Assembly (NCBI GenBank): GCA_964589775.1
Contig: CAZPUN010000013.1
Span: 50,057-70,056, forward strand
DNA length: 20,000 bases
Source of the DNA: an uncultured archaeon
Lineage (GTDB): Archaea; Asgardarchaeota; Thorarchaeia; Thorarchaeales; CAZPUN01
Direction: 5' to 3'
The translations under genes were made by a program, and so were the position numbers. Positions 1-19,698 of this stretch are shown one piece after another; position 1 is the stretch's first letter, and every line of letters starts with the position of its first letter. The notes under the pieces were generated by a model that had not been told where the DNA came from, ran no database searches, and was given only the letters and a program-made list of their open reading frames with translations.

Positions 1-69
1 TGGTCTAGTGGCTATGATTTCGCGCTTACACCGCGAAGATCGCTGGTTCGAATCCGGCTCGGCCCACCA
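1..69 (+). tRNA. tRNA-Val (anticodon TAC), 5' end truncated by window edge
   Basis: Anticodon arm TCGCG-CTTACAC-CGCGA, T arm GCTGG-TTCGAAT-CCGGC, acceptor 3' strand TCGGCCC-A, encoded CCA at 67-69. No intron in the visible part. Confidence 0.93.
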
Positions 70-88
70 TTCTTATCTTTAACTTAGC

Positions 89-260
89 GCTGGGGTATCC
101 AAGCCCGGTATGGAGCCAGCCTGCTAAGTTGGTGACCCTTGTGGTCTCGAGGGTTCGAAAGTGTATATACACCGATAATCTCGTGAGAGGCGAAGTAGCC
201 CATGAGTACGGTGTACCGGTTGAAAGTGTATATGCACCGAAAATCCCTCCCCCAGCGCCA
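89..260 (+). tRNA. tRNA-Ser (anticodon GCT) with a predicted 84-nt intron in the T-loop (about 160-243)
   Basis: Acceptor GCTGGGG/CCCCAGC, discriminator G, encoded CCA. Anticodon arm CCAGC-CTGCTAA-GTTGG, long variable arm GACC..GGTC, T stem GAGGG/CCCTC. T-loop TTCGAA is interrupted and T244 completes TTCGAAT. BHB: TTCG/CGAA central helix with AAA and AAT bulges. Confidence 0.88.
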
Positions 261-352
261 TAAAATGTTCGAAAACGTAGAATTCATAACTGTTTGTGTC
301 GTATTATATATTATATAAAAAAATTTCTTCTACTGAAGGTGAAAGGTACTAT

Positions 353-883
353 ATGTATGACGCAATGAGAATTAATAGTGATTTATTCAAAACTGTATTG
401 GAAGAATTAGGCGGAAAAGAAGCAGTTGAAATTGCATCTGTATTAATTAATGTTCCAGAAACTACTGATGAGGGTATTGCTACAAAAACCGGTTTAAGAT
501 TAAATGTAGTACGTAAAGTGCTATATAAATTACATTCAAATAGCTTGGCTTCCTATCGTCGAATTCGAGATCAATCTACTGGATGGTTTATTTACTTTTG
601 GAAATTAAACCCCGATAGAGCGCAATACTTGATTAATAAAAAGAAAAAAACAGTTCTGAATTTATTGGAACAAAGATTAGAATATGAAAAAAACAATGTA
701 TTTTATGTCTGTAAAAATAATGATACTCCATTATTAACATTTGATGAAGCAATGGAATATTCATTCAAATGTCCACATTGCGATATGCCTCTGATATACT
801 TTGAAAACAAAGCTGCTATTGAATTTCTAGAAAAAAGAATTGACGAGCTCAAGCGAGATCTATCAAGATATAATAACCTATAA
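353..883 (+). CDS. tfe: Transcription initiation factor E subunit alpha (TFE-alpha, TFIIE-alpha homologue)
   Basis: ORF 296..883. Winged-helix N-terminus (LEELGGKEAVEIASVLINVPETTDEGIATKTGLRLNVVRKVLYKL) and C-terminal zinc ribbon (FYVCKN..FKCPHCDMPL). ATG at 353 preceded by GGTG/AGGTA is a more likely start than GTG 296. Confidence 0.88.
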   Translation: MYDAMRINSDLFKTVLEELGGKEAVEIASVLINVPETTDEGIATKTGLRLNVVRKVLYKLHSNSLASYRRIRDQSTGWFIYFWKLNPDRAQYLINKKKKTVLNLLEQRLEYEKNNVFYVCKNNDTPLLTFDEAMEYSFKCPHCDMPLIYFENKAAIEFLEKRIDELKRDLSRYNNL

Positions 884-926
884 AAATATTCTATACTTTC
901 CGATAATAAAAAAGGAATGAGGCATA

Positions 927-1682
927 TTGTCATCAATTATTTTAGCTCGTAGGCTATATGGTCCTTTTTTAAAAAAGGCCTATAATTATTTCAAACGAGA
1001 ACTTAGTGAGATTTTTTCTGAATTGGATCTTAAATTTGTTTGTAATTTACTTGACGATGGTCGTTTAAAAATTAAATTAGAGGGTATTGATAGCGAATTT
1101 GCATCAAATCTATTGAAACAAAAGTATGGCGAGTGTATTTCTGTATCACAACTAAAAATTGGAACAAAATTCATAGGAAATCTAATTGATGTTGGAAAAC
1201 ATGGATTTGGTCTCTATGTTCGACCGTGTTACTGTAGTGAGTTTTATAAAGACGCGCTATTACCTTTGTATTTAATAAAAAAACAATTATCTAATGAATC
1301 CTTACGCAAGCTTGTTTTTAGATATGGTTTTGTCGAGTTTCAAAACATCGAAGTTGAAATTGTGGATTTAGATTATAAATTAGAATCTCCTGATGTTCCA
1401 TACAAAATTTCTGTTAATTTTACAAGGCGTCAATTAGATATATTTAATTCTTGGGTCAATGCAAACCATGATCGTATTATTATTTCAGGTGCATTGCTAT
1501 CTGATGTGCGACGTGCGCTGATTAAAACAGATCATATATCTGATATTTTAAAAATGAAGAGTCCCTGGATATTAGAACATATTCTTGTTGTAAAAAAGTC
1601 ATCAAATGCTACTGGCATTTTATCCTCTATCGGAAAATATCTCTCAAATGTACCTATAGGTATTATTCGTCGTAAGAATTAG
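927..1682 (+). CDS. Conserved archaeal hypothetical protein, DUF2110-like
   Basis: 251-aa intact ORF directly downstream of tfe, ending at the Shine-Dalgarno of the next gene. Family assigned from recalled sequence features only. Confidence 0.6.
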   Translation: MSSIILARRLYGPFLKKAYNYFKRELSEIFSELDLKFVCNLLDDGRLKIKLEGIDSEFASNLLKQKYGECISVSQLKIGTKFIGNLIDVGKHGFGLYVRPCYCSEFYKDALLPLYLIKKQLSNESLRKLVFRYGFVEFQNIEVEIVDLDYKLESPDVPYKISVNFTRRQLDIFNSWVNANHDRIIISGALLSDVRRALIKTDHISDILKMKSPWILEHILVVKKSSNATGILSSIGKYLSNVPIGIIRRKN

Positions 1683-1694
1683 GAGGAATTTATT

Positions 1695-2357
1695 CTGAGA
1701 CTCGACGAATATATTCGATTTTTAGGAATAGTGGAGTCTAGAAATAGATCTCAAAATTTAATTCAAAATGGTATGGTCTTTGTTAATGGAAAAATGGTAA
1801 AGAAGCGGTCCTATGTTGTCAATGATAGTGATTTTTTGCTTGTTTTATTAAATGATGACTATCGCTATCCATTGGGTTATTCAAAAATAAAGAGATTGTT
1901 AAAATATATAAATATACAAATTTCCAAAAAAGCAAAAATATTGGATGTAGGTTCAAGCCATGGAGGATTTATTGAATATTTCTCTCAATATACACATAAT
2001 ATAACTGCTATAGAAATTGATAAAGAAAAGGTTAATTATTTAAAATCAAAATATAATTTTTTGGAAATAATTTGTGCCGATGCTTTTAAAATTCCGTATA
2101 ATAAATTTAAGAAAAATTCATTTGATATTATTTCTATTGATGTTACTACTGAACCTGAGGGCACTTTAAACTTGATTAAAAAATTTCTTTTATTCTTAAA
2201 AGGTGAAGGCATTCTTATTGCTGCATTTAAGTGTAATTGTTCTTTTATTGAAAATGAATTGAATAATATAAAATATTTTGGGGGTGTTGTAAAAAAGGTC
2301 ATTCAGCTAGATGAAAAAAAGCGTGAATGCCACGTATTTATTTCCCGCGACGTTTGA
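1695..2357 (+). CDS. S4 RNA-binding domain + FtsJ/TlyA-like SAM-dependent rRNA methyltransferase
   Basis: Extending the track ORF (1731) upstream in frame gives RLDEYIRFLGIVESRNRSQNLIQNGMVFVNGKMVKK, a typical S4 domain, followed by ILDVGSSHGGFIEYF (SAM motif). No ATG/GTG/TTG before 1731. CTG 1695 follows AGGAGG at normal spacing. Confidence 0.72.
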   Translation: MRLDEYIRFLGIVESRNRSQNLIQNGMVFVNGKMVKKRSYVVNDSDFLLVLLNDDYRYPLGYSKIKRLLKYINIQISKKAKILDVGSSHGGFIEYFSQYTHNITAIEIDKEKVNYLKSKYNFLEIICADAFKIPYNKFKKNSFDIISIDVTTEPEGTLNLIKKFLLFLKGEGILIAAFKCNCSFIENELNNIKYFGGVVKKVIQLDEKKRECHVFISRDV

Positions 2358-2853
2358 TCTTTACAACATCCCCTAGTGTTAATTCTTCATCTTTTTTATC
2401 AAGTTTTATAGGAATGTCAGGTATTTCTATTCGTAAGCTTATTCCTAAGACTCTCTCTAATTTTTTAATTGTTTTATTTTCTGGGACTATCCGTTTAGTC
2501 TCGATTGCTTGTAAAACTGATAGTCGTTCTCCAATTTGTCTCGCGAGTTCTTGTTGTGAAAGTCCCAATTTTTGGCGTCTCTCTTTAATTACTACATTGT
2601 AGTCCTCAATAATTTCATAATCTTCGTCCAATTGTCTTGATTTTTTATGCGTTCTAATTTTTGGCTTTGGAATGTAGACTTGTTTTCTTATTCTTTTTGA
2701 ACTGTGTTTCTTTTGTTCTATAGGCTCAGATTTAATTTCCTCACCTAATTTTGCGCACGTAGAACAAACAGTCATTGTGGCTCCTTCAATTCTAATGGTA
2801 ATTGGTTTGCCCTTTATAGGGCGCCCACAAATCTCACAAAGCAATTTGGTCAC
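2338..2853 (-). CDS. Archaeal multiprotein bridging factor 1 (aMBF1), zinc ribbon + HTH
   Basis: CEICGR..VCSTCAKLG zinc ribbon, then HTH VVIKERRQKLGLSQQELARQIGERLSVLQAIE. Start may be TTG at 2844 (GGTG-N6-TTG) rather than GTG 2853. Confidence 0.88.
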   Translation of the reverse strand: MTKLLCEICGRPIKGKPITIRIEGATMTVCSTCAKLGEEIKSEPIEQKKHSSKRIRKQVYIPKPKIRTHKKSRQLDEDYEIIEDYNVVIKERRQKLGLSQQELARQIGERLSVLQAIETKRIVPENKTIKKLERVLGISLRIEIPDIPIKLDKKDEELTLGDVVKIKRRGK

Positions 2854-2959
2854 CTTTTATATAATATAAAAAGCATTAACACAAATAACCGTTACAATTT
2901 TATTTATAGCATTTTTTATATTAAAAGTAACAAATATAAACATATAAAATAAAGAATTA

Positions 2960-4174
2960 ATGGGTATGACAATGACGGGATCAGTAACTGACAAAGATAA
3001 CAAACGAATTAATGATGCATATTTATCTAGTTATGCACAACATCTTGAAAGAAAATTAAGAGCTCTTGAAACTGAAAAGCAAATCTTGCATGCTGAAAGA
3101 GCAAGACTTCAACAAGAGCTTCATTCATTACGAGTTGAATTAGAAAAAATGCGGCATCCTCCGCTTGTTGCTGCTACTATTGTTGATGTATTACCTGATG
3201 GGCGAGCTATTGTTCGTAGTACTACTGGGCCCTCGTTCGTTGTATATGTTGCATCATCAATACCACAAAAGTATTTACAACCGGGAAGTCATGTTGCATT
3301 AAATCAGAGAACTTTTGCGATAGTTGAAGGTCTTCCTGTAAATCGAGAACCATTTATTAAAAATATGGAAATTGAAGAGGTTCCGAATGTTACATATGAT
3401 GATATTGGTGGATTACATGAACAAATCCGTGAAATTAGAGAGACTGTTGAACTTCCACTATTAAAACCCGAATTATTTGAAAAAGTTGGAATTGAACCAC
3501 CAAAAGGCATATTACTTACTGGGCCTCCCGGGACTGGAAAAACATTGTGTGCAAAGGCTGTTGCACATGAAACAAAAGCAACATTCATTAAAGTAATTGC
3601 ATCCGAATTCGTTCAGAAGTTTATTGGTGAAGGTGCGCGTATTGTTCGTGAAATTTTTGACTTAGCACGTGAAAAAGCCCCTACAATTATGTTTATCGAC
3701 GAGTTGGATGCTGTTGGAAGTCGCCGCTTAGATATTGCAACTAGTGGAGATCGTGAAGTACAACGGACTCTTATGCAGCTTCTAAGTGAGATGGATGGTT
3801 TTGAATCTCGTGGGAATGTCAGAATTATTGCAGCTACAAATCGACCTGATATTTTAGATCCTGCACTGTTAAGACCCGGACGCTTTGATAGAATCATTGA
3901 ATTTACTCTACCTAATCTAGATGGGCGTATTGAAATATTCAAAATCCACACAAGAAATATGAATATAGATAAAGATATTGATTTCATAAAATTAGGCGAA
4001 TTAAGCGAACATGCAACCGGTGCAGATATTAAGGCTATTACGACTGAAGCCGGCATGTATGCCATACGCGCAGGTCGAACAAAAGTAACAATGGATGATT
4101 TTATCAACGCAATTGAAAAAGTTTTACATAAAACAAGTAGATCATTCAAAGCTCCTGTTGATATTTACGCCTAA
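2960..4174 (+). CDS. pan: Proteasome-activating nucleotidase (PAN), AAA+ ATPase
   Basis: N-terminal coiled coil, Walker A GPPGTGKT, Walker [27 protein letters not shown]-terminal ...DIYA fitting an HbYX motif. Confidence 0.95.
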
Positions 4175-4289
4175 TTTTTCCTTTTTTTACTTAACAATTT
4201 TTTATATTCTGATGTATTTTTTTAATATGTACATATTATTTTTATCTGATAACGTAATTCTATTAAGATTATAAATCTCAATTTTATTT

Positions 4290-4501
4290 GCGATGACGAG
4301 ATATTCCCACTATCGAGGGCGCGTTGAGAAATATCGATGATACGCTGCGCAATATGTGGGAAACATCTGAGCAAGCGCCGGAACTACAGAAACACCAGAA
4401 TTCCTGGCACGAGAGAGCTCAGCAGAGGTGGACGGAATGTCCTGACTGTGAAGCTGAGTGTTAGTGCGTTAGGATACAGGTGTTCCTGTACCGGCGCTTT
4501 T
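4290..4501 (+). ncRNA. Candidate structured non-coding RNA (family unidentified)
   Basis: GC-rich block in an AT-rich intergenic region with no ORF. TTATAAAT at 4269-4276, TTCCCAC(4304-4310)/GTGGGAA(4356-4362), long rod AGCGCCGG(4374-4381)+TACAG(4385-4389)+AACACC(4391-4396) paired to GGTGTT(4479-4484)+CTGTA(4486-4490)+CCGGCGCT(4491-4498), then TTTT. Confidence 0.55.
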
Positions 4502-4506
4502 AGATT

Positions 4507-5172
4507 TTAAATCTCAATTGTATCTCCAGGATTTAGAATGTGTGCTTTTGTATTTGGCGATTCTTTTTCGACGTATTTCATAAATTCATTAGGATCTTTC
4601 TCTATTACCGGAAATGTGTTATAATGCATAGGTATTACATGTTTAACTCCTAATAGTTTAGTAGCAATAGCTGCTTCCTTAGGTCCCATTGTGAATGTCG
4701 AACCAATCGGTAATAGTGCAATATCTGGTTTATAAACATCGCCTAATAATTTCATATCACCAAATAATCCAGTATCACCGGGATGATAAATTGTATGACT
4801 TGCAAATTTCACAATGAAGCCGATAGGTGCCCCGATTGATGAAGAATGGAATGCTCGGGTCATAATTATTTCGGTATTTCCTAATTTATATGTACCACCA
4901 ATATTCATCCCTAATGTATTTTTCACTCCTTTTTCAGAAGCAACATTTGCTAATTCGAAGATACTCACAAAGGTTGCATTGGTTTTTTTAGCAATTTCTA
5001 TGCCTTCATCTAGTCCATGGTCTCCATGATCATGAGAGACAAAAACAAAATCACATTTATTTATGTCATCAATTTTCATTTTTGAAGTTGGAGCTGATAA
5101 CCATGGATCAAAGAAAGCAATTACATCATCCTCAATTTTAAAACCTGCATGTCCTATGTATGTTATTTTCAT
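4507..5172 (-). CDS. UPF0173-type metal-dependent hydrolase (metallo-beta-lactamase fold)
   Basis: MKITYIGHAGFKIED..FVSHDHGDHGLDEG..YHPGDTGLFGDMKLLG..IPMHYNTFP. ATG at 5172 preceded by GAGGTG-N6. The upstream extension in the ORF track is probably not translated. Confidence 0.88.
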   Translation of the reverse strand: MKITYIGHAGFKIEDDVIAFFDPWLSAPTSKMKIDDINKCDFVFVSHDHGDHGLDEGIEIAKKTNATFVSIFELANVASEKGVKNTLGMNIGGTYKLGNTEIIMTRAFHSSSIGAPIGFIVKFASHTIYHPGDTGLFGDMKLLGDVYKPDIALLPIGSTFTMGPKEAAIATKLLGVKHVIPMHYNTFPVIEKDPNEFMKYVEKESPNTKAHILNPGDTIEI

Positions 5173-5240
5173 AATAACCACCTCATCCAAATCTTTAATT
5201 GTATTTATGCATTTTAATTCATCGATTATATTATAGGAGG

Positions 5241-6143: not shown

Positions 6144-6153
6144 AAAAAAAGGA

Positions 6154-6516: not shown

Positions 6517-6517
6517 T

Positions 6518-7633
6518 TTATATACCAACTCCAATTGTATTTCCAATTCCAGCTAAGATTATGTGATCACCTGGTTTTGTTCTTTTCAATATCGCTTCTT
6601 CTATTGTTTTTACAATTTCATCGACAGTGTCCAATATTTGTTTATTCATTGTACCTACTGCTTCTGCTTCTGACTGTTTACATACTATTGCATCGATTGG
6701 TATGTTTCTTTCTGTTGCTGTTTGTTCAATTGCATATTTTTCCGGCCCTGGATCACCAATAGCGGCTCCGACACCCTCTACAATCGTTCCCGTCTTTTCG
6801 CCTTCTAGTTTTAGTGCAGCATCAACAGTTATGATCCGTTTAATTTCATTTTTATGAAGATCTATCATTTTTTTAATAGCAAAACCTGGTTTTCCAACTC
6901 TTCCTCCCGGTCCAGTAGCGCGAATAACATATATTGTTCTTCCTTCAAAATTCACCTGATAATATCCAATTTCTTTTTCAAAGTTGTCATGATATTCAGG
7001 TGCATTATGTTTTTTAGCAAAGGTGGTAACTGATAATGGGCCAATACTATCTCCGATGGGTTTTCCTTTTGAAAATGGATCTATTGCTTTTGCATATGAT
7101 TTCGCTAATCTCATAATGTCTGCTAATTGCATCTGTAATTGCATAATTATTAGAGTACTTCCTGTCTTTTTACCTAAAATCCAATAATGTCTTACAATTC
7201 TAAAAATTAAATTTAATACCATAGCTACTTCGACTGTATTTTCTAAATTGCTCCGTGTAACTTCATTTGCATTTGGTGCAATGTCTTTGATAAATTCTTC
7301 AAATCTTTCTTTTCGTGTCTCAATTAAATGCTCAAGTCTATCTAAAACACCTGCTGGATCTTTATCAACAGGTTCTATTGTAAAGAATTCCAAGAATTTT
7401 TCAAATTTTTCTTTTGGATCTTTTCCTTCTTCAGTATACTTCTTTATGACTTCTAGCGCCTTTTCTTTGCTATTTATCATCATTATTCGTAATTCTATTA
7501 AAGCAGATTCTATTTGTCTTAACCACATATGTAATTGAAATTTTTGACCGTATAGAGAAAATACTATTATAAAGACTAAGAATGCTATGTTTATAATCCA
7601 ACCAAAATCTGATGTATCATTAAGAAATTGCAT
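6518..7633 (-). CDS. DUF1512-like conserved archaeal protein
   Basis: 371-aa ORF with one N-terminal TM and conserved C-terminal region VRATGPGGRVGKPGFAIKK..TVDAALKLEGEKTG..VGAAIGDPGPEKY. Family from recalled similarity. Confidence 0.65.
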   Translation of the reverse strand: MQFLNDTSDFGWIINIAFLVFIIVFSLYGQKFQLHMWLRQIESALIELRIMMINSKEKALEVIKKYTEEGKDPKEKFEKFLEFFTIEPVDKDPAGVLDRLEHLIETRKERFEEFIKDIAPNANEVTRSNLENTVEVAMVLNLIFRIVRHYWILGKKTGSTLIIMQLQMQLADIMRLAKSYAKAIDPFSKGKPIGDSIGPLSVTTFAKKHNAPEYHDNFEKEIGYYQVNFEGRTIYVIRATGPGGRVGKPGFAIKKMIDLHKNEIKRIITVDAALKLEGEKTGTIVEGVGAAIGDPGPEKYAIEQTATERNIPIDAIVCKQSEAEAVGTMNKQILDTVDEIVKTIEEAILKRTKPGDHIILAGIGNTIGVGI

Positions 7634-7711
7634 TTTACCTCACTTGTTCTTCTAATTTACTTGCATAATTTCAATAAATGAAACTTATAAAACTAGTTCT
7701 GATTGCATTCG

Positions 7712-7789
7712 TGGTGGGCTGGGGGAGATTTGAACTCCCGACCTCTTGAGCCCAAGTCAAGAATCATAGCCAAGCTAGACTACCAGCCC
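7712..7789 (-). tRNA. tRNA-Pro (anticodon TGG), no intron
   Basis: Acceptor GGGCTGG/CCAGCCC, anticodon arm CTTGA-CTTGGGC-TCAAG, T arm GGGAG-TTCAAAT-CTCCC, encoded CCA. Confidence 0.93.
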
Positions 7790-7790
7790 A

Positions 7791-7883
7791 TGGAGCCCCG
7801 GGCGGGACTTGAACCCGCGGCCTCCTCCTTACCAAGGAGGCGATTTGGCCCTTTACTTGTCTAACCAACTGAGCTACCGAGGC
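7791..7883 (-). tRNA. tRNA-Thr (anticodon GGT) with a predicted 16-nt intron in the D-arm (about 7845-7860)
   Basis: Acceptor GCCTCGG/CCGGGGC, anticodon arm CCTCC-TTGGTAA-GGAGG, T arm GCGGG-TTCAAGT-CCCGC, encoded CCA. About 16 nt extra between GGTTAG and ATCG; GGTT/GGCC central helix with AGA and AAA bulges. Confidence 0.88.
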
Positions 7884-7935
7884 AACGTGTTCATTCATTT
7901 TTCTTTTGCTTTAAAAATCTTTTTTAAATGGTATA

Positions 7936-8137
7936 TGGTGGGGTCGACGAGATTTGAACTCGTGACCATTACCCCGAATTGCAGCGTATGCAATTCGCAC
8001 AGGTTTCTCAAGGCTTGCCTCTCCAGAAGTTCATCATCTGATCATCAGCAAACCTGTGTTGGCGCACAGCCTTCTGGAGCCTGCCGCGATTCAGGGCTTT
8101 TGGTATGACCAAGCATACCTGACTTCGCCACGACCCC
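7936..8137 (-). tRNA. tRNA-Trp (anticodon CCA) with three predicted introns: D-loop (8090-8115), anticodon loop (8005-8073), variable region (7969-7998)
   Basis: Acceptor GGGGTCG/CGACCCC, D stem GCGA/TCGC, anticodon stem GCAGG/CCTGT, loop CTCCAG|A, variable TGGTC, T arm ACGAG-TTCAAAT-CTCGT, encoded CCA. Removing 26+69+30 nt leaves a normal 77-nt tRNA including CCA. Confidence 0.85.
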
Positions 8138-8298
8138 ATCTATATTCATCAAATAATGAGTTAACATTATAAAATAAACATTTCGATAATATCCTATCTG
8201 GGCGCTTTATTTTATGGCGCCTGTATATAATCTAAATTATATACTTTGTGCAATTAAAGAAAACTTTATTTACAAAACTTATGATACTATGAATCGGT

Positions 8299-8420
8299 AT
8301 GCTGGCCATAGGTGGTGGTGATACGCCTGTTCCCATCTGAACACAGAAGCTAAGACCACTACCGGTCCGCGTAGTAGTGCGGTGCGCGAGCCCGTGCAAG
8401 CCGCGGATAGCTAGCAGCCA
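8299..8420 (+). rRNA. 5S ribosomal RNA
   Basis: GGTGGTGATACGCCTGTTCCCATCTGAACACAGAAGCTAAGACCACTACC core, with terminal helix GCTGGC/GCTAGC. Ends approximate. Confidence 0.93.
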
Positions 8421-8531: not shown

Positions 8532-8670
8532 GCGGAGGTATCCAAGCCCGGTCAAAGCCTGTCGGCTTACCGACGACTACCTCTGAGAATGGGGTCAGGC
8601 GATCTAAGGAGCCAGACTTAAGATCTGGTCGAGTAGTCGTTCGCGTGTTCAAATCGCGCCCTCCGCACCA
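8532..8670 (+). tRNA. tRNA-Leu (anticodon TAA) with a predicted 51-nt intron in the D-loop (8556-8606)
   Basis: Acceptor GCGGAGG/CCTCCGC, anticodon arm CCAGA-CTTAAGA-TCTGG, variable arm CGA..TCG, T arm GCGTG-TTCAAAT-CGCGC, encoded CCA. BHB: GGTC/GATC, bulges AAA and TAA, inner helix GCCTG/CAGGC. Confidence 0.9.
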
Positions 8671-8709
8671 GCTTTATTCTCATAAATCTTTACAAATAGT
8701 TCAGGATTG

Positions 8710-10038: not shown

Positions 10039-10043
10039 GATTA

Positions 10044-11930: not shown

Positions 11931-11989
11931 ATCTCATCATCAATCAATATATTTTTTAAGGAAAATGACATTTCACACTATGTGATAAT

Positions 11990-12117
11990 GCCGGGGTTGC
12001 CTAGCCTGGTTATGGTTAAAAGCAATTTAACCGCCAAAGGGCGCCAGACTCATAATCTATTCAAAAAGGGGTCGATGAGCTATCTGGAGGTCGCGCGTTC
12101 GAACCGCGCCCCCGGCA
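11990..12117 (+). tRNA. tRNA with anticodon CAT (probably elongator tRNA-Met) with two predicted introns: D-loop (12013-12038) and anticodon loop (12055-12081); no encoded CCA
   Basis: Acceptor GCCGGGG/CCCCGGC, D stem GCCT/GGGC after splicing, anticodon stem CCAGA/TCTGG, loop CTCATA|A, T arm GCGCG-TTCGAAC-CGCGC. Followed by CTA rather than CCA. Confidence 0.85.
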
Positions 12118-12175
12118 CTAATTTTAGCAAAAAAGTCTAAAATACTAAAAGTATGATTTTGTTTTGGTGAATGTT

Positions 12176-13384
12176 ATGAGCCTTCCTTTCAAAACTCTTG
12201 ATGATATTAATCTAACTGGCAAAAAGGTATTAGTAAGAGCCGAATTAAATTCGCCCATTGATCCCTCTAGCAAAAAAATTCTTGATACTTCTCGGATTGA
12301 TTCTCTTAAAAAAACATTAGATGAATTGAGCAATTCTGCGATAGTAATAATAGCTCATCAGGGACGACCTGGCTCTGATGATTTCATAGATCTTTCGCCA
12401 CATGCTGAACGATTAAGAGAGTTGGGATATAATGTAAAATTTGTAGATGATATTATTGGAACAAAATCAATTAATGCGATCAAAAATCTAAAAATTGGAG
12501 AAATCTTAGTATTGGATAATGTTCGTAAAATTCCTGAAGAAATTAAAAAAATGTCATTTGAAGATGCTTCTAAGACTCAGCTAGTAAAAACACTTGCGCC
12601 ATTATTTGATTCATTCATTCAAGATGCTTTTGGAGTAGCACACAGAGCACAGCCTTCTGTAATTGGATTTCCTGAACTTTTGCCTAGTGTAGCAGGTAGA
12701 CTTGTTGAACGTGAATATCGTGCATTATCTACACTGGTGGAAAATATAAAGCATCCATATGTTGTAGTTTTAGGTGGCGCCAAATTATCTACAAAGATTC
12801 CATTTATTGAACACCTATTAGAAAATGAAATGGTTGATTTCGTATTAACTGGCGGTTTGGTATCAAATGTTTTCTTATATGTTAGTGGAATTAGAATGGA
12901 TAGTAAAAACATACAAAAGGCAGATGATACTATAATAAAAATCGCCAAGCGAATATTTGAAAAGTATTCTGACAAAATTATTATTCCTAAAGATGTTGCA
13001 TATGAACATAATGGAAAGCGTGAAGAAATTAAAATAAGTGAAAAATCTGTGATTAACTTCCCGATTTTTGATATAGGACATGAGACTATTTCTGAATATT
13101 CGCAAATTATAAAATCTGCAAAAACAATATTTGCAAATGGTCCCTTGGGCTATTTTGAAAACTCACTATTTACAGAGGGTACTGATGCTATTATTGATGT
13201 TTTTAGATCTATAGATGCAAATATTATTGTTGGTGGTGGTCATTTAGGTGCTGTAATTTCCAGCAAATCTATTCCATCTAATATATATATTAGCACAGGT
13301 GGAGGCGCAGCATTAGCTTTTGTCTCAGGAAAAGAATTACCTTTGTTTGAAGCTCTAAAACGTTCATATTTAAAATTTAATTAA
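12176..13384 (+). CDS. pgk: Phosphoglycerate kinase
   Basis: KKVLVRAELNSPID, VIIAHQGRPGSDDF, VLGGAKLSTKI, FANGPLGYFE, GGGHLGAVI. ATG 12176 follows GGTG-N6. Confidence 0.93.
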   Translation: MSLPFKTLDDINLTGKKVLVRAELNSPIDPSSKKILDTSRIDSLKKTLDELSNSAIVIIAHQGRPGSDDFIDLSPHAERLRELGYNVKFVDDIIGTKSINAIKNLKIGEILVLDNVRKIPEEIKKMSFEDASKTQLVKTLAPLFDSFIQDAFGVAHRAQPSVIGFPELLPSVAGRLVEREYRALSTLVENIKHPYVVVLGGAKLSTKIPFIEHLLENEMVDFVLTGGLVSNVFLYVSGIRMDSKNIQKADDTIIKIAKRIFEKYSDKIIIPKDVAYEHNGKREEIKISEKSVINFPIFDIGHETISEYSQIIKSAKTIFANGPLGYFENSLFTEGTDAIIDVFRSIDANIIVGGGHLGAVISSKSIPSNIYISTGGGAALAFVSGKELPLFEALKRSYLKFN

Positions 13385-13435
13385 GTATATCACTAAGCAA
13401 ATATTTTTATTTTTTATTTTCATGTTATTTTGTGT

Positions 13436-13525
13436 GCCTCGGTAGCTTAGCGGCATAGCGGCAGACTTGTATATGAATGTAAAGAAATCTGCAGGTCGCG
13501 GGTTCAAATCCCGCCCGGGGCTCCA
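13436..13525 (+). tRNA. tRNA-Thr (anticodon TGT) with a predicted 15-nt intron at 37/38 (13472-13486)
   Basis: Acceptor GCCTCGG/CCGGGGC, anticodon stem GCAGA/TCTGC, loop CTTGTA|A, T arm GCGGG-TTCAAAT-CCCGC, encoded CCA. Confidence 0.9.
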
Positions 13526-13640
13526 CTTATTCCAAAAAATTATTATTTGTCTGCAAAGGTTTTTATTTTAATAATCACTCTTTTATCTAAGAAGAGTTAA
13601 ATATTTAATATGAGTATTTAAAAAATAATGGTGGTTCCTG

Positions 13641-14459
13641 ATGCAAATTGATGCTTCAAATTTATGGAATATGATTATAGGTGCCTTTAAACCCTTATCT
13701 GATGCTCTGAGTGGTATAGGAATTAATGTATCCCCGAGTTTCTTGTTTTTATTAATTACGGGAATTTCGGTCTTCCTACTTGTGATCTTTATAAGACGCA
13801 GAACAAGCTTACTTGATTCTGATATAATGCCAGAATATCGTGAGCTATTGGAGTCTTCTATATCTTCCCCATTGACTACGATTGAGATACGAAAGTTATC
13901 TCAAATCAGGGACCCCAGACAATTACTAATATTGATGAAAGTGGAAGAAGCTGCTGTAGAAAATGCAATTAAGTTATTAAATGCGCTTCTTAAATCTGGT
14001 GAAATTGACGAATCATTTCATAGTTCCATTCTTAATCTGTATGATGTTAGATTAAGAAGACTTCAAGAAGTATTAGAAAAGGCTCGTGATATTGATAAAC
14101 TAAAGAGAACTGAAGCTGATATTTCTCATGCTAGGCATGAATATATACGAAAGCTTGCTTCATTATCTGGTGCAGCGCCGCCTGTAGCTGGAGCGCCACC
14201 GGCAGCTGGGGCACCACCGGCAGCTGGGGCACCACCGGCAGCTGGGGCACCACCGGCAGCTGGGGCACCACCGGCAGCTGGAGCGCCGCCTGTAGCTGGG
14301 GCACCACCGGCAGCTGGGGCACCACCGGCAGCTGGAGCGCCATCCCGCCCTGTATCAATGGCACGAGCTATTACTGGGACTGATAAGAAAAAGGAATCTC
14401 TTCAAGATGAAATGCTTAGTGCTATTGAGCAATTAAAACAGCTTATTGAAATGGATTAA
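13641..14459 (+). CDS. Membrane-anchored coiled-coil protein with Ala/Pro/Gly tandem repeat, function unknown
   Basis: 272-aa ORF with N-terminal TM (SFLFLLITGISVFLLVIFI), helical region, about ten GAPPAA units, and basic/charged C-terminus. Start preceded by GGTG-N7-ATG. Confidence 0.75.
   Translation: MQIDASNLWNMIIGAFKPLSDALSGIGINVSPSFLFLLITGISVFLLVIFIRRRTSLLDSDIMPEYRELLESSISSPLTTIEIRKLSQIRDPRQLLILMKVEEAAVENAIKLLNALLKSGEIDESFHSSILNLYDVRLRRLQEVLEKARDIDKLKRTEADISHARHEYIRKLASLSGAAPPVAGAPPAAGAPPAAGAPPAAGAPPAAGAPPAAGAPPVAGAPPAAGAPPAAGAPSRPVSMARAITGTDKKKESLQDEMLSAIEQLKQLIEMD
14172..14345 (+). repeat. 18-bp in-frame tandem repeat (unit encodes GAPPAA/GAPPVA)
   Basis: About ten near-identical copies of GGGGCACCACCGGCAGCT in an otherwise AT-rich genome. 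Confidence 0.92.
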
Positions 14460-14529
14460 ATTATCGCGAACTTTTGTTCAGCGATATTATTTTATATTTT
14501 TATTTACGGTTTATTTTTGGTGTTATAGT

Positions 14530-15222
14530 ATGAGTTCTGCAAAGCATAATTCTGCAAAATCTGCAATTAAAATGGTAAAAGATAACTTTACTATTGGTCT
14601 AGGTAGTGGTACTACTGTTGTTTATTTTATTGAAGAATTATCTGAATTAGTTAAAATGGGATATCATATTAAAGTGGTCCCATCCTCCTATCAGTCTTAT
14701 TCATTGGCAATAGAATATAAAATACCTATTACAAATTTAGATGAATCTCCTATACTTGATATAACAGTTGATGGTGCAGATGAAGTGGATCCCGACCTAA
14801 ATTTAGTAAAGGGTGGTGGTGCTGCTCTAACTCGTGAAAAAATAATTGCTTCTGCTGCTAAAGAATTAGCCATTATTGTTGATGACTCCAAGATTGTCAA
14901 GCATCTCGGTAAGCGTATTGGAATCCCTATTGAAGTCTTACCCTTTGCATGGGGATCCGTTAAGCGAAAAATTTTAGATATGGGATATGAGCCTATACTT
15001 AGAATGGCAACACGAAAAATGGGCCCTGTTATTTCTGATAATGGAAACTTCATAGTTGATGTGCAAATAAAAAATATTATAGATGATTTATACGAATTTA
15101 ATCATGCTTTACTTGAAATTCCTGGCGTAATTGAAACAGGTTTATTCATTAATATGGCTGATGTAGTACATGTTGGTACCTCTGAGGGCGCCTATACCCT
15201 AAATCGGCCTAATAAAAAGTAA
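14530..15222 (+). CDS. rpiA: Ribose-5-phosphate isomerase A
   Basis: IGLGSGTTVVYFIEEL, DITVDGADEVDPDLNLVKGGGAALTREKIIA, GVIETGLFINMADVVHVGTSEG. ATG 14530 preceded by GGTG-N7. Confidence 0.94.
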   Translation: MSSAKHNSAKSAIKMVKDNFTIGLGSGTTVVYFIEELSELVKMGYHIKVVPSSYQSYSLAIEYKIPITNLDESPILDITVDGADEVDPDLNLVKGGGAALTREKIIASAAKELAIIVDDSKIVKHLGKRIGIPIEVLPFAWGSVKRKILDMGYEPILRMATRKMGPVISDNGNFIVDVQIKNIIDDLYEFNHALLEIPGVIETGLFINMADVVHVGTSEGAYTLNRPNKK

Positions 15223-15235
15223 CGGGGCTATTTAT

Positions 15236-15814
15236 ATGAATGATACACTTGATAATTCAAAAAATAAAGATGAGAACACAATTCCTGTAGTAACTTTTGA
15301 TACTCAGGAGTATATTGGCATTGTATCTCCTGAAGAATATTCAAAGATTCTTCAATCTGGACCATTTGGAACACTAATTCAGGACCAATATGTACTAACT
15401 CCAATTGAATGTATGTATTTACTTTTTAAAAATAAGATTTTTTTAATTGATTCAGATGGATCTCCAATATCAATACACCAGCTTTTGAAAATCATGCTTC
15501 CACAAGATAAGGATATATGGACAAAATTTCTTGTATATTTTGATCTGAGGTCAAGAGGTTACTCTGTAAAGCAAGGTTTTGGACCTGGCATAAGTTTTAG
15601 ATTATATCCTCGTGGAAGTAGATTGGGTGATGATACTGCAAAAATGTTAATTTACATATTAACTGACGGTGACTCTATATCACTTGATGAATTAGAGCGA
15701 ATAACAAAACTTTCAACAAGTTCAAGAAAAAAATTAATTTTTGCTCTAATTAATCCACAAGGTGAAATTACGTACTATAAAGTATCTCAAGTACCACTAA
15801 GTGAGGGAAAATAG
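15236..15814 (+). CDS. tRNA-intron endonuclease (EndA) family protein, apparently lacking the catalytic His
   Basis: C-terminal domain FLVYFDLRSRGYSVKQGFGPGISFRLYPRGSRLGDDTAKMLIYIL...SSRKKLIFALINPQGEITYYKV resembles archaeal EndA. Tyr and Lys positions present; Thr replaces the catalytic His in an ungapped recalled alignment. Confidence 0.82.
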   Translation: MNDTLDNSKNKDENTIPVVTFDTQEYIGIVSPEEYSKILQSGPFGTLIQDQYVLTPIECMYLLFKNKIFLIDSDGSPISIHQLLKIMLPQDKDIWTKFLVYFDLRSRGYSVKQGFGPGISFRLYPRGSRLGDDTAKMLIYILTDGDSISLDELERITKLSTSSRKKLIFALINPQGEITYYKVSQVPLSEGK

Positions 15815-15815
15815 T

Positions 15816-17420
15816 TTGAGTAATAATGAAATATATGTTTTGGATACGTCGATAGTAATTGATGGATGGTTGTCTAAGCAAATAAAATCTGGAAATTTCA
15901 ATAATTCAAAAATAGTTATTCCAAATGTAGTTATCGCAGAAATCGAATATCAATCAAACCAAGGATATTCTTCTGGTCGTGCAGGATTAGATGAATTAAT
16001 CGAATTACGAAATCTAGAAAAATCTGGTTTTATTGAACTGATGTTATTTGGTGATCGCCCCTCACTAGATCAAATAAAGCTAAGTTATGGTGGTGAGCTT
16101 GATGAACTTATTCGTGCAGTAGCTTTTGAATTAAATGCTACACTTATTACTATGGATAAAGTGCAGTCAAAAGTAGCGGAAATTCAAGGTATTAATGTAA
16201 TTCTTGTAAAGCCGATGCGTGAAAATGGATATAAAATAGAAGACTTTTTTGAAAGTGATATAATGTCTATTCATTTAGCAGAAGGTAATCCTCCGCGTGC
16301 TAAGCGAGGTTCTCCAGGTAATTGGCAATTAGTCACTTTAAGTGATGATATTTTAACAAGAGACGATATTAAACTTCTAATTGAAGATATTTTCTATCAC
16401 GCAAAAGCTATGCCTGATACATTTTTTGAGATACAGGATCGTGGTGCTACCGTAATCCAAATGCAAAATCTGAGAATTGTAATTACAACTCCTCCATTTT
16501 CGAATAAATATGAAATCACGGCAGTGCGTCCAATTGTTCATTTAACTATTGAAGACTATAACCTAGATAATCAATTATTGGCACGATTAGATACCCGCGC
16601 AGAAGGGATTCTTGTCGCCGGTTCTCCTGGTGCAGGAAAATCAACATTTGCTGCGGCATTGGCTGAGCGCTATGCAAATCAAAATAAAGTTGTAAAAACT
16701 ATTGAAAAGCCCCGTGATTTAGAAGTGCCTGATACGATTACACAATATACTACACTTTCAGACAATATGGAACGTACAGCTGATGTTTTACTTCTTGTTC
16801 GTCCAGATTATTGTATTTATGATGAATTACGTCGTACTGAAGATTTTCAATTCTTTGCAGATCTTAGATTTGCAGGTGTTGGTGTAGTCGGTGTTGTTCA
16901 TGCAAATGAACCTATTGATGCAGTACAACGCTTTTTATCGCGTGTCGAATTAGGACAAATCTCACGGGTTATTGATACTGTAATCTTTTTGAAAGGCGGA
17001 AAGATTACTCATGTTTCGTCATTAAATCTTACAGTTCGTGTCCCCTCCGGACTAGCTGAAAAAGACCTTGCACGTCCTGTTGTTGAAGTTCGTGATTTTC
17101 ATACTGGTGCTTTAGAATATGAAATCTATACATTTGGAGAACAAACAATTGTTGTTCCCATAAAAGGAAGCAAAAAACGGAAAGGCAAAAGAGAATCAAA
17201 GACAATTATTCCTAGTATATCTATTGAAAAGCGCCATATTGTTATTTATGTTGGACGTGAATATGCCGATCAAAAAATAACAATATTGTCTAATGGGAAA
17301 CCCTTATTTGACGCATTTGTTGGGAAGGAAGGAGTAGCTAAAATAAGAAAGAAAACAAAGAATGGACGCCTGTTATTTGACCATATTTCAGCAGGTGCAG
17401 ATATTAAAGTTCAGACTTAA
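15816..17420 (+). CDS. PIN-domain + VirB11/PilT-like ATPase with C-terminal KH-like region (PINA-type protein)
   Basis: PIN start IYVLDTSIVIDGWLSKQ, Walker A VAGSPGAGKSTFAAAL, VLLLVRPDYCIYDELRRTEDF, VVGVVHANEPIDAVQRFL. Start TTG 15816 (ORF open from GTG 15801), directly after the EndA-like stop. Confidence 0.85.
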   Translation: MSNNEIYVLDTSIVIDGWLSKQIKSGNFNNSKIVIPNVVIAEIEYQSNQGYSSGRAGLDELIELRNLEKSGFIELMLFGDRPSLDQIKLSYGGELDELIRAVAFELNATLITMDKVQSKVAEIQGINVILVKPMRENGYKIEDFFESDIMSIHLAEGNPPRAKRGSPGNWQLVTLSDDILTRDDIKLLIEDIFYHAKAMPDTFFEIQDRGATVIQMQNLRIVITTPPFSNKYEITAVRPIVHLTIEDYNLDNQLLARLDTRAEGILVAGSPGAGKSTFAAALAERYANQNKVVKTIEKPRDLEVPDTITQYTTLSDNMERTADVLLLVRPDYCIYDELRRTEDFQFFADLRFAGVGVVGVVHANEPIDAVQRFLSRVELGQISRVIDTVIFLKGGKITHVSSLNLTVRVPSGLAEKDLARPVVEVRDFHTGALEYEIYTFGEQTIVVPIKGSKKRKGKRESKTIIPSISIEKRHIVIYVGREYADQKITILSNGKPLFDAFVGKEGVAKIRKKTKNGRLLFDHISAGADIKVQT

Positions 17421-17472
17421 TGTATTATTAGAAAATCTTTTTTAATAATGCCCTATAAAAATCAATGAAAGC

Positions 17473-17595
17473 GGGCCCGTAGCCTAGCGGATAGACGAAT
17501 AGGTCCAAGGCGCTGGCCTCCTAATTTTAGTTGGAGCCAGTCAGTGGTCACGAGTTCGAAAGGTAAAAAACCCGAAACTCTCGTCGGGCCCGCCA
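17473..17595 (+). tRNA. tRNA-Arg (anticodon CCT) with three predicted introns: D-loop (17495-17508), anticodon loop (17524-17538), T-loop (17561-17578)
   Basis: Acceptor GGGCCCG/CGGGCCC, D stem GCCT/GGGC, anticodon stem CTGGC/GTCAG, loop CTCCTA|A, variable TGGTC, T stem ACGAG/CTCGT, T-loop TTCGAA|T, encoded CCA. Removing 14+15+18 nt gives a 76-nt tRNA. Confidence 0.88.
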
Positions 17596-17614
17596 ATTAA
17601 AAAAGGTGGGTCGC

Positions 17615-18094
17615 TTGATTTTTGAAAAGAATGAATTAATTGAATTTTTATCACATGCAGAACGATTGGTATTAATTGGGGTAGGTAATGAGAATTTAGG
17701 AGATGATGGTGTAGGAGTCTATATTGTAAATAGTATTCATAAAGCCACAAAATCTAATTTTGTATTAAATGGTGGTAGCGTTCCCGAAAATATTACTCAC
17801 AAATTAAGAAATTTATTGCCTACGCATATATTACTAATAGATGCCGCAAATTTTAATGAAGAACCTGGAAGTTTCATATTAGCAACATCCGACGATGTTG
17901 TTGGGAAATCAATTTCAACGCATCAATTACCTCTTTCTATTTTGATGAAATACCTTGAAAACGAATATCATGCAAATGTTCGTTTATTATGCATTCAGAT
18001 TGAATCAAAAATTCCTTCTATGAAATTAACACAAAGTGTGTTGCATACTGCAAATAATCTTATTAATATCTTAATTCCTTATTTTTCAAAATAA
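17615..18094 (+). CDS. Hydrogenase-maturation-protease (HycI/HybD) family protein
   Basis: LVLIGVGNENLGDDGVGVYIVNSI, THILLIDAANFNEEPGSF, STHQLPLSILMKYLE. TTG 17615 follows GGTG-N6 (ORF open from 17606). Confidence 0.75.
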   Translation: MIFEKNELIEFLSHAERLVLIGVGNENLGDDGVGVYIVNSIHKATKSNFVLNGGSVPENITHKLRNLLPTHILLIDAANFNEEPGSFILATSDDVVGKSISTHQLPLSILMKYLENEYHANVRLLCIQIESKIPSMKLTQSVLHTANNLINILIPYFSK

Positions 18095-18106
18095 GAGGTG
18101 AATATT

Positions 18107-19144
18107 TTGTATAAGACGGTAGAGTGGTTAGATAATAAAAATGCAGTAAAATTAATTGATCAAACAAAGCTTCCATTAAAAGAAAAATTCATTGTTACCA
18201 AATCATATAAACGAATTGCAAAGGCAATTAAAATTATGGAGGTTCGAGGAGCTCCTGCTATTGGTGTTGCCGCAGGGATGGGTATGGCATTAGCAGCTAT
18301 TGAGTCTAAAGCAAAAAATAAAGAACAATTAATTCACTTCTTAGAAAATGCGGGGAAAATTCTTACCTCAACGCGACCAACAGCTGTAAATCTATTCTGG
18401 GCAGTAGATCGTATGCTAAATAAAGCCCGTGAATTATCCGGCGACGTTGATTTTATCATCAATGAGTTAATAAAAGAAGCAAAACTAATTGCAGAAGAAG
18501 ATATACAATCTTGTATCAATATTGGAAAAAATGCCTTAGAACTGATTGAGGATGATTGGACAATTCAGACGATTTGTAATGCCGGTTCTTTAGCAACCGC
18601 TTGGTATGGTACTGTCGGTGGAGTAATTAGAGAAGCATATAAGAATAAGAAGGGCATAAAAGTTTATGCTGCTGAAACTCGTCCTAGATTGCAAGGTGCC
18701 AGATTAACTGTTTATGAATTTATGAAAGATAATATACCAGTTACACTAATTACCGATTCAATGATCGGAACCGTGTTTTCACAAGGAAAAATAAATTGTA
18801 TTGTTGTGGGCGCAGATAGAATATTAAAATCCGGACATGTAATAAATAAAATAGGTACATATACAATGGCAATAGTTGCAAAATATCATAACATTCCATT
18901 TTATGTTGCTGCTCCAATATCAACATTTGACCTAAAAACGCCTGTTGAAGAAGTCATTATTGAAGAACGTAGTGGTGATGAAATTCGTAAAATTAATGGT
19001 GAATACATCACTGTACCGGATGTTCCAGTGTACAATCCTGCATTTGACATAACTCCACCTGAATTGATCTCTGCTATAATCACAGAAAAAGGTATAATTC
19101 GAAATCCACAACCGGATACAATACTAAAACTTGTAAAAAGTTAA
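18107..19144 (+). CDS. mtnA: S-methyl-5-thioribose-1-phosphate isomerase-like protein (MtnA / aIF2B-related family)
   Basis: EVRGAPAIGVAAGMGMALA, TSTRPTAVNLFWAVDRM, TICNAGSLATAWYGT, ETRPRLQGARLTVYE, VVGADRI, NKIGTYTMAIVAKYH. TTG 18107 follows GAGGTG-N6. Confidence 0.85.
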   Translation: MYKTVEWLDNKNAVKLIDQTKLPLKEKFIVTKSYKRIAKAIKIMEVRGAPAIGVAAGMGMALAAIESKAKNKEQLIHFLENAGKILTSTRPTAVNLFWAVDRMLNKARELSGDVDFIINELIKEAKLIAEEDIQSCINIGKNALELIEDDWTIQTICNAGSLATAWYGTVGGVIREAYKNKKGIKVYAAETRPRLQGARLTVYEFMKDNIPVTLITDSMIGTVFSQGKINCIVVGADRILKSGHVINKIGTYTMAIVAKYHNIPFYVAAPISTFDLKTPVEEVIIEERSGDEIRKINGEYITVPDVPVYNPAFDITPPELISAIITEKGIIRNPQPDTILKLVKS

Positions 19145-19216
19145 TTGGCGCTTTTCTTTCCTTTTTTATTTTTGACAAATAATAATCTTTTTAATGATTT
19201 ATTTCAAGATATATAT

Positions 19217-19310
19217 GGGTCCGTAGTCCAGCCTGGATTAGGGCGCAGGCCTTCGGTCTTGTCAGGAAGATAGTCTGATGTCGGGAGTTCAAATCTCCCC
19301 GGACCCGCCA
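19217..19310 (+). tRNA. tRNA-Arg (anticodon TCG) with a predicted 15-nt intron at 37/38 (19257-19271)
   Basis: Acceptor GGGTCCG/CGGACCC, anticodon stem CAGGC/GTCTG, loop CTTCGG|A, T arm GGGAG-TTCAAAT-CTCCC, encoded CCA. CTTC/GAAG central helix. Confidence 0.9.
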
Positions 19311-19372
19311 TTTATAACACAATCGAAAGATTTTAATTATTATTGCCTTATAATCAAAACCACATGGTATAT

Positions 19373-19451
19373 GCCCCGGTGGTGTAGTCCGGCCTAGCAT
19401 TCAGGACTGTCACTCCTGAGATCTCGGGTTCAAATCCCGACCGGGGCGCCA
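19373..19451 (+). tRNA. tRNA-Asp (anticodon GTC), no intron
   Basis: Acceptor GCCCCGG/CCGGGGC, anticodon loop CTGTCAC in stem CAGGA/TCCTG, T arm TCGGG-TTCAAAT-CCCGA, encoded CCA. Confidence 0.95.
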
Positions 19452-19585
19452 GATCTTTCAAAAAATTCTGAAATACATTTCTTACAGTTAGAAATATTTT
19501 TAAGCGGTATAATGGGAATCTCATACGTTCAATTAGATAGTTAAAAACACATTTGCCATGTTTATGGCTTAAATCTAATAATTGT

Positions 19586-19698
19586 GGGCCCGTAGCTCAG
19601 AAACTTACCAATGAAGCTGGAACGGTAGAGCGTCAGGCTTTTATCAAAGTTCGGAAGAAACCTGCTGGCCGCGGGTTCAAATCCCGCCGGGCCCGCCA
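19586..19698 (+). tRNA. tRNA-Lys (anticodon TTT) with two predicted introns: D-loop (19603-19622) and anticodon loop (19644-19659)
   Basis: Acceptor GGGCCCG/CGGGCCC, D stem GCTC/GAGC, loop CTTTTA|A flanked by CAGG/CCTG, T arm GCGGG-TTCAAAT-CCCGC, encoded CCA. Confidence 0.88.

Follow-up and report, generated by a model that had tools for sequence, protein, structure and literature searches.

The 20,000-nucleotide (nt) stretch of contig CAZPUN010000013.1 analyzed here (the window; 35% G+C) comes from a metagenomic source and carries 12 transfer RNA (tRNA) genes of the perhaps 40–46 in the genome. The acceptor, anticodon and T-arm segments of a tRNA are readable at all 12 of the places named in an earlier note on this DNA, and extra sequence lies between these segments in nine of them. 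The extra sequence can be divided into 15 segments, each with the features of an archaeal bulge-helix-bulge (BHB) intron. The genes and the predicted introns are listed below. Intron sites are given as tRNA positions, and paired bases are given for the central helix (H) and the flanking helices (h and h') of each motif, in base pairs (bp).

tRNA-Val(TAC), 1–69, plus strand: 5' end cut by the window; intronless; CCA encoded; Rfam 43.9 bits, truncated.
tRNA-Ser(GCT), 89–260, plus strand: one T-loop intron; spliced form is tRNA-Ser(gct), 88 nt; raw Rfam 23.2 bits.
Predicted Ser-GCT intron, 160–243, plus strand: 84 nt at 59/60; outer BHB with h 5 bp, H 4 of 4 and h' 12 bp; inner BHB at about 179–224.
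tRNA-Pro(TGG), 7712–7789, minus strand: intronless; found by ARAGORN and by Rfam (59.9 bits).
tRNA-Thr(GGT), 7791–7883, minus strand: one D-arm intron; spliced form is tRNA-Thr(ggt).
Predicted Thr-GGT intron, 7845–7860, minus strand: 16 nt at 22/23; H 4 of 4 (GGUU/GGCC), relaxed flanks.
tRNA-Trp(CCA), 7936–8137, minus strand: three introns; spliced form is tRNA-Trp(cca), 77 nt; the raw gene gives only a weak match to the transfer-messenger RNA (tmRNA) model.
Predicted Trp intron 1, 8090–8115, minus strand: 26 nt in the D-arm at 21/22; H 4 of 4, h' 4.
Predicted Trp intron 2, 8005–8073, minus strand: 69 nt at the canonical 37/38; h 5, H 3 of 4, h' 5; box C'/D' and two guides.
Predicted Trp intron 3, 7969–7998, minus strand: 30 nt at 43/44 (boundary of anticodon stem and variable loop); H 4 of 4, h' 9.
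tRNA-Leu(TAA), 8532–8670, plus strand: one D-arm intron; spliced form is tRNA-Leu(taa), 88 nt; the raw gene is missed by ARAGORN and at the Rfam gathering score.
Predicted Leu-TAA intron, 8556–8606, plus strand: 51 nt at about 21/22; h 2, H 4 of 4, h' 5.
tRNA-Met(CAT), 11990–12117, plus strand: elongator-type stems; two introns; no encoded CCA; spliced form is tRNA-Met(cat).
Predicted Met intron 1, 12013–12038, plus strand: 26 nt at 21/22; h 3, H 4 of 4, h' 7.
Predicted Met intron 2, 12055–12081, plus strand: 27 nt at 37/38; h 5, H 4 of 4, h' 2.
tRNA-Thr(TGT), 13436–13525, plus strand: one canonical intron; Rfam 58.6 bits with a 17-nt insert; untyped by ARAGORN in raw form.
Predicted Thr-TGT intron, 13472–13486, plus strand: 15 nt at 37/38; h 5, H 3 of 4, h' 2.
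tRNA-Arg(CCT), 17473–17595, plus strand: three introns; spliced form is tRNA-Arg(cct), 76 nt; the raw gene is missed by ARAGORN and Rfam.
Predicted Arg-CCT intron 1, 17495–17508, plus strand: 14 nt at 22/23; h 2, H 4 of 4, h' 1.
Predicted Arg-CCT intron 2, 17524–17538, plus strand: 15 nt at 37/38; h 7, H 4 of 4, h' 0 (hBH type).
Predicted Arg-CCT intron 3, 17561–17578, plus strand: 18 nt in the T-loop at 59/60; h 5, H 4 of 4, h' 3.
tRNA-Arg(TCG), 19217–19310, plus strand: one canonical intron; Rfam 45.6 bits; spliced form is tRNA-Arg(tcg).
Predicted Arg-TCG intron, 19257–19271, plus strand: 15 nt at 37/38; h 5, H 4 of 4, h' 2.
tRNA-Asp(GTC), 19373–19451, plus strand: intronless; found by ARAGORN and Rfam.
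tRNA-Lys(TTT), 19586–19698, plus strand: two introns; spliced form is tRNA-Lys(ttt); the raw gene gives only a weak match to the tmRNA model.
Predicted Lys intron 1, 19603–19622, plus strand: 20 nt in the D-loop between positions 17 and 18; H 4 of 4, h' 3.
Predicted Lys intron 2, 19644–19659, plus strand: 16 nt at 37/38; h 4, H 4 of 4, h' 1.

Exons were defined by requiring a canonical cloverleaf, and junctions were placed with a single rule: a 4-bp helix H, a 3-nt bulge and a cut after the second bulge nucleotide, symmetric on both strands. When a repeated base made a junction ambiguous by 1 nt, we took the register that fitted the BHB, which leaves the mature sequences unaffected. Permissive enumeration of BHB motifs on its own returned hundreds of chance candidates per gene and was informative only in combination with the cloverleaf requirement. 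Removal of the 15 segments in silico yielded nine tRNAs of 75–88 nt, all of them full-length ARAGORN calls with the expected anticodons. The 3' CCA is encoded in 11 of the 12 genes (eight of the nine interrupted ones), the sole exception being tRNA-Met(CAT). Two other parses were tried and rejected. Taking GCCAG as the 3' strand of the anticodon stem of tRNA-Arg(CCT) left a 9-nt variable loop, and GUCAG with a 15-nt intron at 37/38 was preferred. Similarly, a perfect GAGC strand in the D-stem of tRNA-Thr(GGT) would need two tiny introns, and we preferred the single intron at 22/23. We also observed that tRNA-Trp and tRNA-Arg(CCT) have a near-identical variable loop and T-arm (UGGUC ACGAG UUCRAAU CUCGU).

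The unspliced window looks very different to standard gene callers. ARAGORN called four tRNAs in the raw sequence, two of them with an untypable anticodon. The Rfam tRNA model, at its gathering score, recovered six of the 12 tRNAs (one of them cut by the window start) and one 5S ribosomal RNA (rRNA). At a permissive threshold, Rfam added a weak tRNA match at 89–143, while the tmRNA model, which belongs to the same clan as the tRNA model, weakly matched 7936–8137 and 19586–19698. These results bear out most of what the earlier note had proposed from hand folding. All 12 tRNAs and all 15 introns in nine genes were recovered, each intron in the gene and arm that the note gave, and the site classes agree exactly: six in the D-arm, six at 37/38, one in the variable region (43/44) and two in the T-loop (59/60). 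Nine of the 15 introns are at non-canonical sites, as the note's 'mostly' implied, and the cloverleaf that it expected after removal was restored in all nine genes. Its warning about standard callers was also justified, for half of the genes were missed or mistyped by ARAGORN or Rfam. Default annotation of such genomes would thus give wrong estimates of codon capacity and of the completeness of metagenome-assembled genomes (MAGs) unless intron-aware callers are used.

The geometry of the predicted junctions is very far from random. We scored H, the central 4-bp helix, at a fixed offset of 2 nt upstream from each splice site. All four pairs form in 13 introns and three of the four in the other two (58 of 60 pairs). 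Shuffled introns (20,000 trials) gave 25.2 ± 3.5 pairs, with a maximum of 40; on average, 0.38 helices per trial were fully paired. Furthermore, sliding the 3' site by 1–4 nt in either direction left only zero or one intron with a complete helix. Counting only contiguous pairs beside the bulges, which makes the division approximate, eight motifs are strict (hBHBh', with h and h' of at least 2 bp) and seven are relaxed (hBH or HBh'). In six of the seven relaxed motifs one flank reaches 2 bp or more, and the seventh, Thr-GGT, has 0 and 1 contiguous pairs. Unconstrained minimum free energy (MFE) folds of whole precursors also display the BHB for the Ser intron, both Met introns and the T-loop intron of Arg-CCT.

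We consider it very probable that the tRNA genes are functional and that their inserts are archaeal introns, removed by proteins at BHB motifs. In such a pathway the fold of the precursor would place each exon-intron junction in a 3-nt bulge, with the two bulges 4 bp apart. On both strands, the splicing endonuclease EndA would then cleave 3' of the second nucleotide of the bulge, and an RNA ligase (RtcB in archaea) would join the exons and release the intron, usually as a circle. In the three-intron genes some of the BHBs share nucleotides. For example, the helix of the 43/44 intron of tRNA-Trp uses positions 38–41, which also belong to the anticodon stem needed by the motif at 37/38. Motifs that compete for the same nucleotides would have to be spliced stepwise.

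A sister species, represented by GCA_053940065.1 and two further assemblies, is fully syntenic with the window (protein identities of 70% for EndA, 79% for GatE and 94% for PAN) and allows the exons and introns to be compared. In silico splicing of its nine interrupted genes likewise gives sequences that ARAGORN calls as tRNAs with the anticodons expected, and homologous introns lie at the same sites in all three of its assemblies. The exact proteins of the window also recur in independent assemblies (ENA ERZ27262694, Logan SRR8542060 and an NCBI record). A metagenomic source can give rise to inserts through misassembly or chimerism, yet an artefact is scarcely credible here, because identical genes were assembled independently in those three records and the sister-species assemblies carry the homologous introns.

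The comparison also separates functional genes from decaying ones. The mature tRNAs of the two species differ at only five of 712 positions (99.3% identical). In contrast, the shared introns have 40 mismatch and 28 gap columns in 373 (approximately 18%, excluding a 65-nt insertion in the Ser intron), and the intergenic DNA is strongly diverged. Some of the changes within introns maintain the predicted helices. In Thr-GGT, H reads GGUU/GGCC in the window and GGUC/GAUC in the sister, three substitutions that leave all four pairs intact, and h' of the Met D-arm intron has one compensatory change from A-U to U-A. The Thr-TGT intron has three of the four H pairs in the window and all four in the sister, and Trp intron 3 is 100% identical in both. 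These data argue for selection acting on the exons and on BHB geometry rather than for pseudogenes, although we read this selection from sequence conservation. The genes could be decaying copies with random insertions whose functional, intronless counterparts reside elsewhere, as the stretch that we saw is only part of the genome and two of the mature tRNAs have one stem mismatch each. That explanation is very improbable. The exons have stayed nearly identical while their surroundings diverged, each insert has a BHB in exact register at its borders, CCA was kept in all but one of the genes, and published Asgard genomes carry genes of this kind as their only copies.

Two of the introns differ between the species in ways that may reflect ongoing change. 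The 18-nt intron at 59/60 of tRNA-Arg(CCT) (17561–17578) is cleanly absent from the sister gene (about position 12290 of its contig L008), and the gap falls at the predicted junction. The intronless T-arm of the sister reads ACGAG-UUCGAAU-CUCGU, which is exactly the predicted ligation product. This is an intron that, judging from the two sequences, was recently either gained or lost.

The second case is the T-loop intron of tRNA-Ser(GCT), which is 84 nt long in the window and 19 nt at the same site in the sister. It corresponds to two tandem copies of the sister's 19-nt intron, separated by 46 nt. Pairing of one copy with the other over 12 bp creates h' of the outer BHB, and a second BHB lies inside the intron (179–224; CGAU/GUUG with AAU and AAA bulges) and appears in the MFE fold. 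Reading the repeat units as two separate small introns was rejected, as the intervening 'exon' is not tRNA-like. The 46-nt insert starts with UCUCGU, the string found at the 3' side of the T-arm in Trp and Arg-CCT, but this may be coincidence. Cleavage of the inner motif, if it does occur, would make the Ser intron a protein-spliced 'twintron' that captures BHB introns in the act of being gained or growing. A more distant, partly syntenic contig with 53% G+C (L016, from GCA_027031765.1; positions 2146–2506 and 6569–7017) encodes a Leu-TAA with an intron in the T-loop rather than the D-arm and a Met-CAT in which large inserts follow the anticodon arm. Related lineages therefore differ in where their introns sit.

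The canonical intron of tRNA-Trp (8005–8073, minus strand) has features of a guide RNA. Both its D' (CUGA) and its C' (GAUGAUGA) box are conserved, and it bears two guides of 12 nt each. By the N+5 rule, the D' guide would target C39 and the second guide C34. In Euryarchaeota, C34 and position 39 of tRNA-Trp are methylated via an intron-borne box C/D RNA, according to a review (PMC4090602, citing Clouet d'Orval 2001 and Singh 2004). The window's intron resembles those guides in its length (69 nt versus a reported median of 65 nt), its C' and D' boxes and its guides to C34 and 39. Unlike them, it belongs to an apparently Asgard host, and canonical terminal C and D boxes (RUGAUGA and CUGA) were not found in this intron, where the corresponding positions hold GUGCGCC and GCAA.

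The window also encodes a candidate component of the splicing enzyme, located between the genes for ribose-5-phosphate isomerase and a PIN/ATPase protein and approximately 1.8 kilobases (kb) from a HycI protease gene:

EndA homologue, 15236–15814, plus strand: 192 amino acids (aa); Pfam tRNA_int_endo N- and C-terminal domains; single two-domain unit.

Its best match among solved structures is the alpha4 enzyme of Methanocaldococcus jannaschii, with 145 residues aligned without gaps and no L1-type insertion. The tyrosine and lysine of the catalytic triad are kept. However, the catalytic H125 of M. jannaschii aligns to Thr134, which is a serine in the sister species and an alanine in the nearest other homologue. 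A HMMER search of 1.84 billion representative sequences returned 778 EndA homologues. The best 80 of the 778 are nearly all His-less single units or fusions with a His-less unit resembling the window protein. In the fusions among these 80, the window-like unit is N-terminal and the C-terminal unit carries the Tyr-His-Lys triad. The closeness to M. jannaschii and the retained tyrosine and lysine could indicate that the protein is itself an active homotetramer of the alpha4 type that removes all of the introns, but we give this only a slim chance. The alpha4 type accepts only strict BHBs, and about seven of the motifs here are relaxed. The catalytic histidine is replaced in the window protein and in its nearest relatives, and in the fusions among the best 80 representatives the window-like unit is almost always the His-less one. 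Furthermore, mutating Y, H or K abolishes cleavage by the EndA of Methanopyrus kandleri, with the His-to-Ala change inactivating the enzyme (PMC5829648).

The missing histidine, the pattern among homologues and the M. kandleri mutants together indicate that the window protein is most likely a structural beta subunit of an (alpha-beta)2 enzyme, a role assigned here by homology. We infer that the catalytic alpha subunit, with its L1 loop, would be encoded elsewhere in the genome. This inference draws on the pair of EndA genes in Atabeyarchaeia-1 and on a report that Asgard archaea have (alpha-beta)2 EndA with an L1 loop that confers broad specificity (Kaneta et al., PMC5829648). An enzyme of this kind would fit the relaxed motifs of the window. 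The window protein resembles the (alpha-beta)2 EndA of M. kandleri and of the TACK (Thaumarchaeota, Aigarchaeota, Crenarchaeota and Korarchaeota) and Asgard archaea (PMC5829648; PMC2724299) in its His-less two-domain unit and its relaxed BHB substrates. In contrast to those systems, no alpha partner and no L1 (Crenarchaea-specific) loop turned up in the approximately 50 kb of this genome that could be read; nor was the ligase found there. A separate search for EndA homologues returned three proteins only, none of them a catalytic alpha subunit, and a scan of metagenome contigs with EndA as the query gave no match.

The host looks like an Asgard-affiliated archaeon, a placement that is based on the names of the best matches to two proteins. 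After the congener, the closest homologues of PAN are 65–71% identical, and the named ones among the best 120 matches are all from Thor-, Odin-, Hel- or Baldrarchaeia or Promethearchaeia. The next homologues of GatE are 51–56% identical and, among the best 120 matches, the named ones come from Thor-, Odin- or Asgardarchaeia or from Promethearchaeota, with one 'Thermoprotei' exception. No Thermoplasmatota name occurs among the best 120 matches of either protein, and the single 192-aa, His-less EndA unit is not of the alpha'2 type of Thermoplasmata. The 16S rRNA gene is absent from the window. The congener is the only one in 5.8 billion proteins, the next relatives being at most 56% (GatE), at most 71% (PAN) and 41% (EndA) identical. 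Thus, the euryarchaeal or Thermoplasmatota-like host suggested by the earlier note finds no support in the Asgard matches of PAN and GatE or in the type of EndA. Its view of the introns as unusual for the host does not stand either, since Asgard lineages with this pattern are already documented (PMC11291895).

A TACK or euryarchaeal host, which would make the pattern more unusual, is unlikely, though two results favor it. Outside the genus, EndA has its nearest homologue in Methanomethylicota (41% identity), and a scan of genome contigs with GatE, which needs exact shared 8-mers and was not used for taxonomy, gave two 'Thermococci archaeon' MAGs at 48% identity. The named PAN and GatE matches are Asgard with the one exception and lie above the identity of the 'Thermococci' proteins. 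Gene order also speaks for the Asgard affiliation: tRNA-Asp and tRNA-Lys(TTT) adjoin as in Freyarchaeia, and EndA is near HycI as in Atabeyarchaeia-1, where one of the two EndA genes lies two genes from HycI.

Several observations weigh against the overall reading of functional BHB introns in an Asgard-type host. The excision of the introns, the ligase and the order of splicing are steps that we infer from the genes. The alpha subunit of EndA with its L1 loop and the ligase were not found in the 50 kb searched, and the host placement depends on the match names of two proteins. Covariation support is thin with only one sister species, whose Arg-CCT intron at 37/38 has just two of the four central pairs in the chosen register, and the division into strict and relaxed motifs is approximate. 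There are also two small blemishes, both kept in the sister species: a C11-U24 mismatch in the D-stem of mature tRNA-Thr(GGT) and a U27-C43 mismatch in mature tRNA-Lys(TTT).

Taken jointly, the observations would describe an undescribed, deeply branching Asgard-affiliated lineage in which tRNA introns are turning over now, as exemplified by the T-loop intron of Arg-CCT and by an ancestral 19-nt Ser intron duplicated around a 46-nt insert to create a nested BHB. As a whole this scenario is less likely than not. The window would add an apparently unsampled Asgard-type lineage to the few archaea with very high loads of ectopic tRNA introns. The clean contrast between two species, in which the introns drifted around static exons, one intron was gained or lost and another was enlarged by duplication, also bears on how BHB introns spread. 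The known mechanism and the known taxonomic range of the phenomenon are unchanged.

Other elements in and beside the window merit description. The space between the PAN gene and a gene for a metallo-beta-lactamase-fold protein contains a conserved structured RNA (about 4290–4500, plus strand) that looks like an H/ACA guide with a double hairpin. Two ACA motifs and a GAUGA element similar to a K-loop are present in it, and Rfam weakly matches it to the HgcG/Pab40 H/ACA RNA (E 0.004, below the gathering score). Compared to the relative, it shows a compensatory change from GGAC/GUCC to GGGC/GCCC, and the flanking spacer is not conserved. An open reading frame (ORF) at 13641–14459 (plus strand) encodes 272 aa, with a hydrophobic segment at the N-terminus and a run of approximately 13 hexapeptide repeats (AGAPPA/VGAPPA). 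Pfam gives no match for it, nor for the ORF of 278–284 aa at this position in the relative. The 5S rRNA gene (8298–8419) is a solitary gene amid tRNA genes, with no 16S or 23S gene nearby. L005, a sequence that reaches upstream of the window, contains the complete copy of tRNA-Val(TAC) (73 nt, intronless, 63 bits) and, directly upstream of it and of window position 1, an archaeal signal recognition particle (SRP) RNA (6666–6978; Rfam 182.8 bits).

The closest parallels to the tRNA genes of the window are in Atabeyarchaeia and Freyarchaeia. According to Valentin-Alvarado et al. 2024 (PMC11291895), introns interrupt 92–95% of the tRNA genes in these Asgard archaea (228 introns in three genomes), more than half of the genes have multiple introns, and the sites are often non-canonical ones. 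A high load of tRNA introns has thus already been reported in Asgard archaea, and the pattern in the window is expected rather than anomalous for the broad group. As in those genomes, where many genes have two to four introns, most tRNA genes are interrupted, often at non-canonical sites, and standard tRNAscan misses some of the introns. tRNA-Trp has three introns in the window and three to four in Atabeyarchaeia and Freyarchaeia. However, the window's load (75% of 12 genes; 1.25 introns per gene) is somewhat below their 92–95%. Val-TAC, Pro-TGG and Asp-GTC are intronless here but bear introns there, and Arg-CCT has three introns here versus one or two. These unlike patterns indicate that the window belongs to another lineage, one that appears to be undescribed.

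Thermoproteales provide the second comparison. A review that covers Sugahara 2008 and Fujishima 2010 (PMC4090602) describes their BHB introns at 22/23, at 59/60 and at further ectopic positions, a single gene having as many as three. The 43/44 site of tRNA-Trp is absent from the site list in that review, the only list with which it was compared. The window differs from Thermoproteales in its phylum and in showing no evidence of near-identical intron families across genes. It shares with them the ectopic introns at 22/23 and 59/60, the presence of up to three introns in a gene, the mixture of strict and relaxed motifs and the turnover of introns between close relatives.

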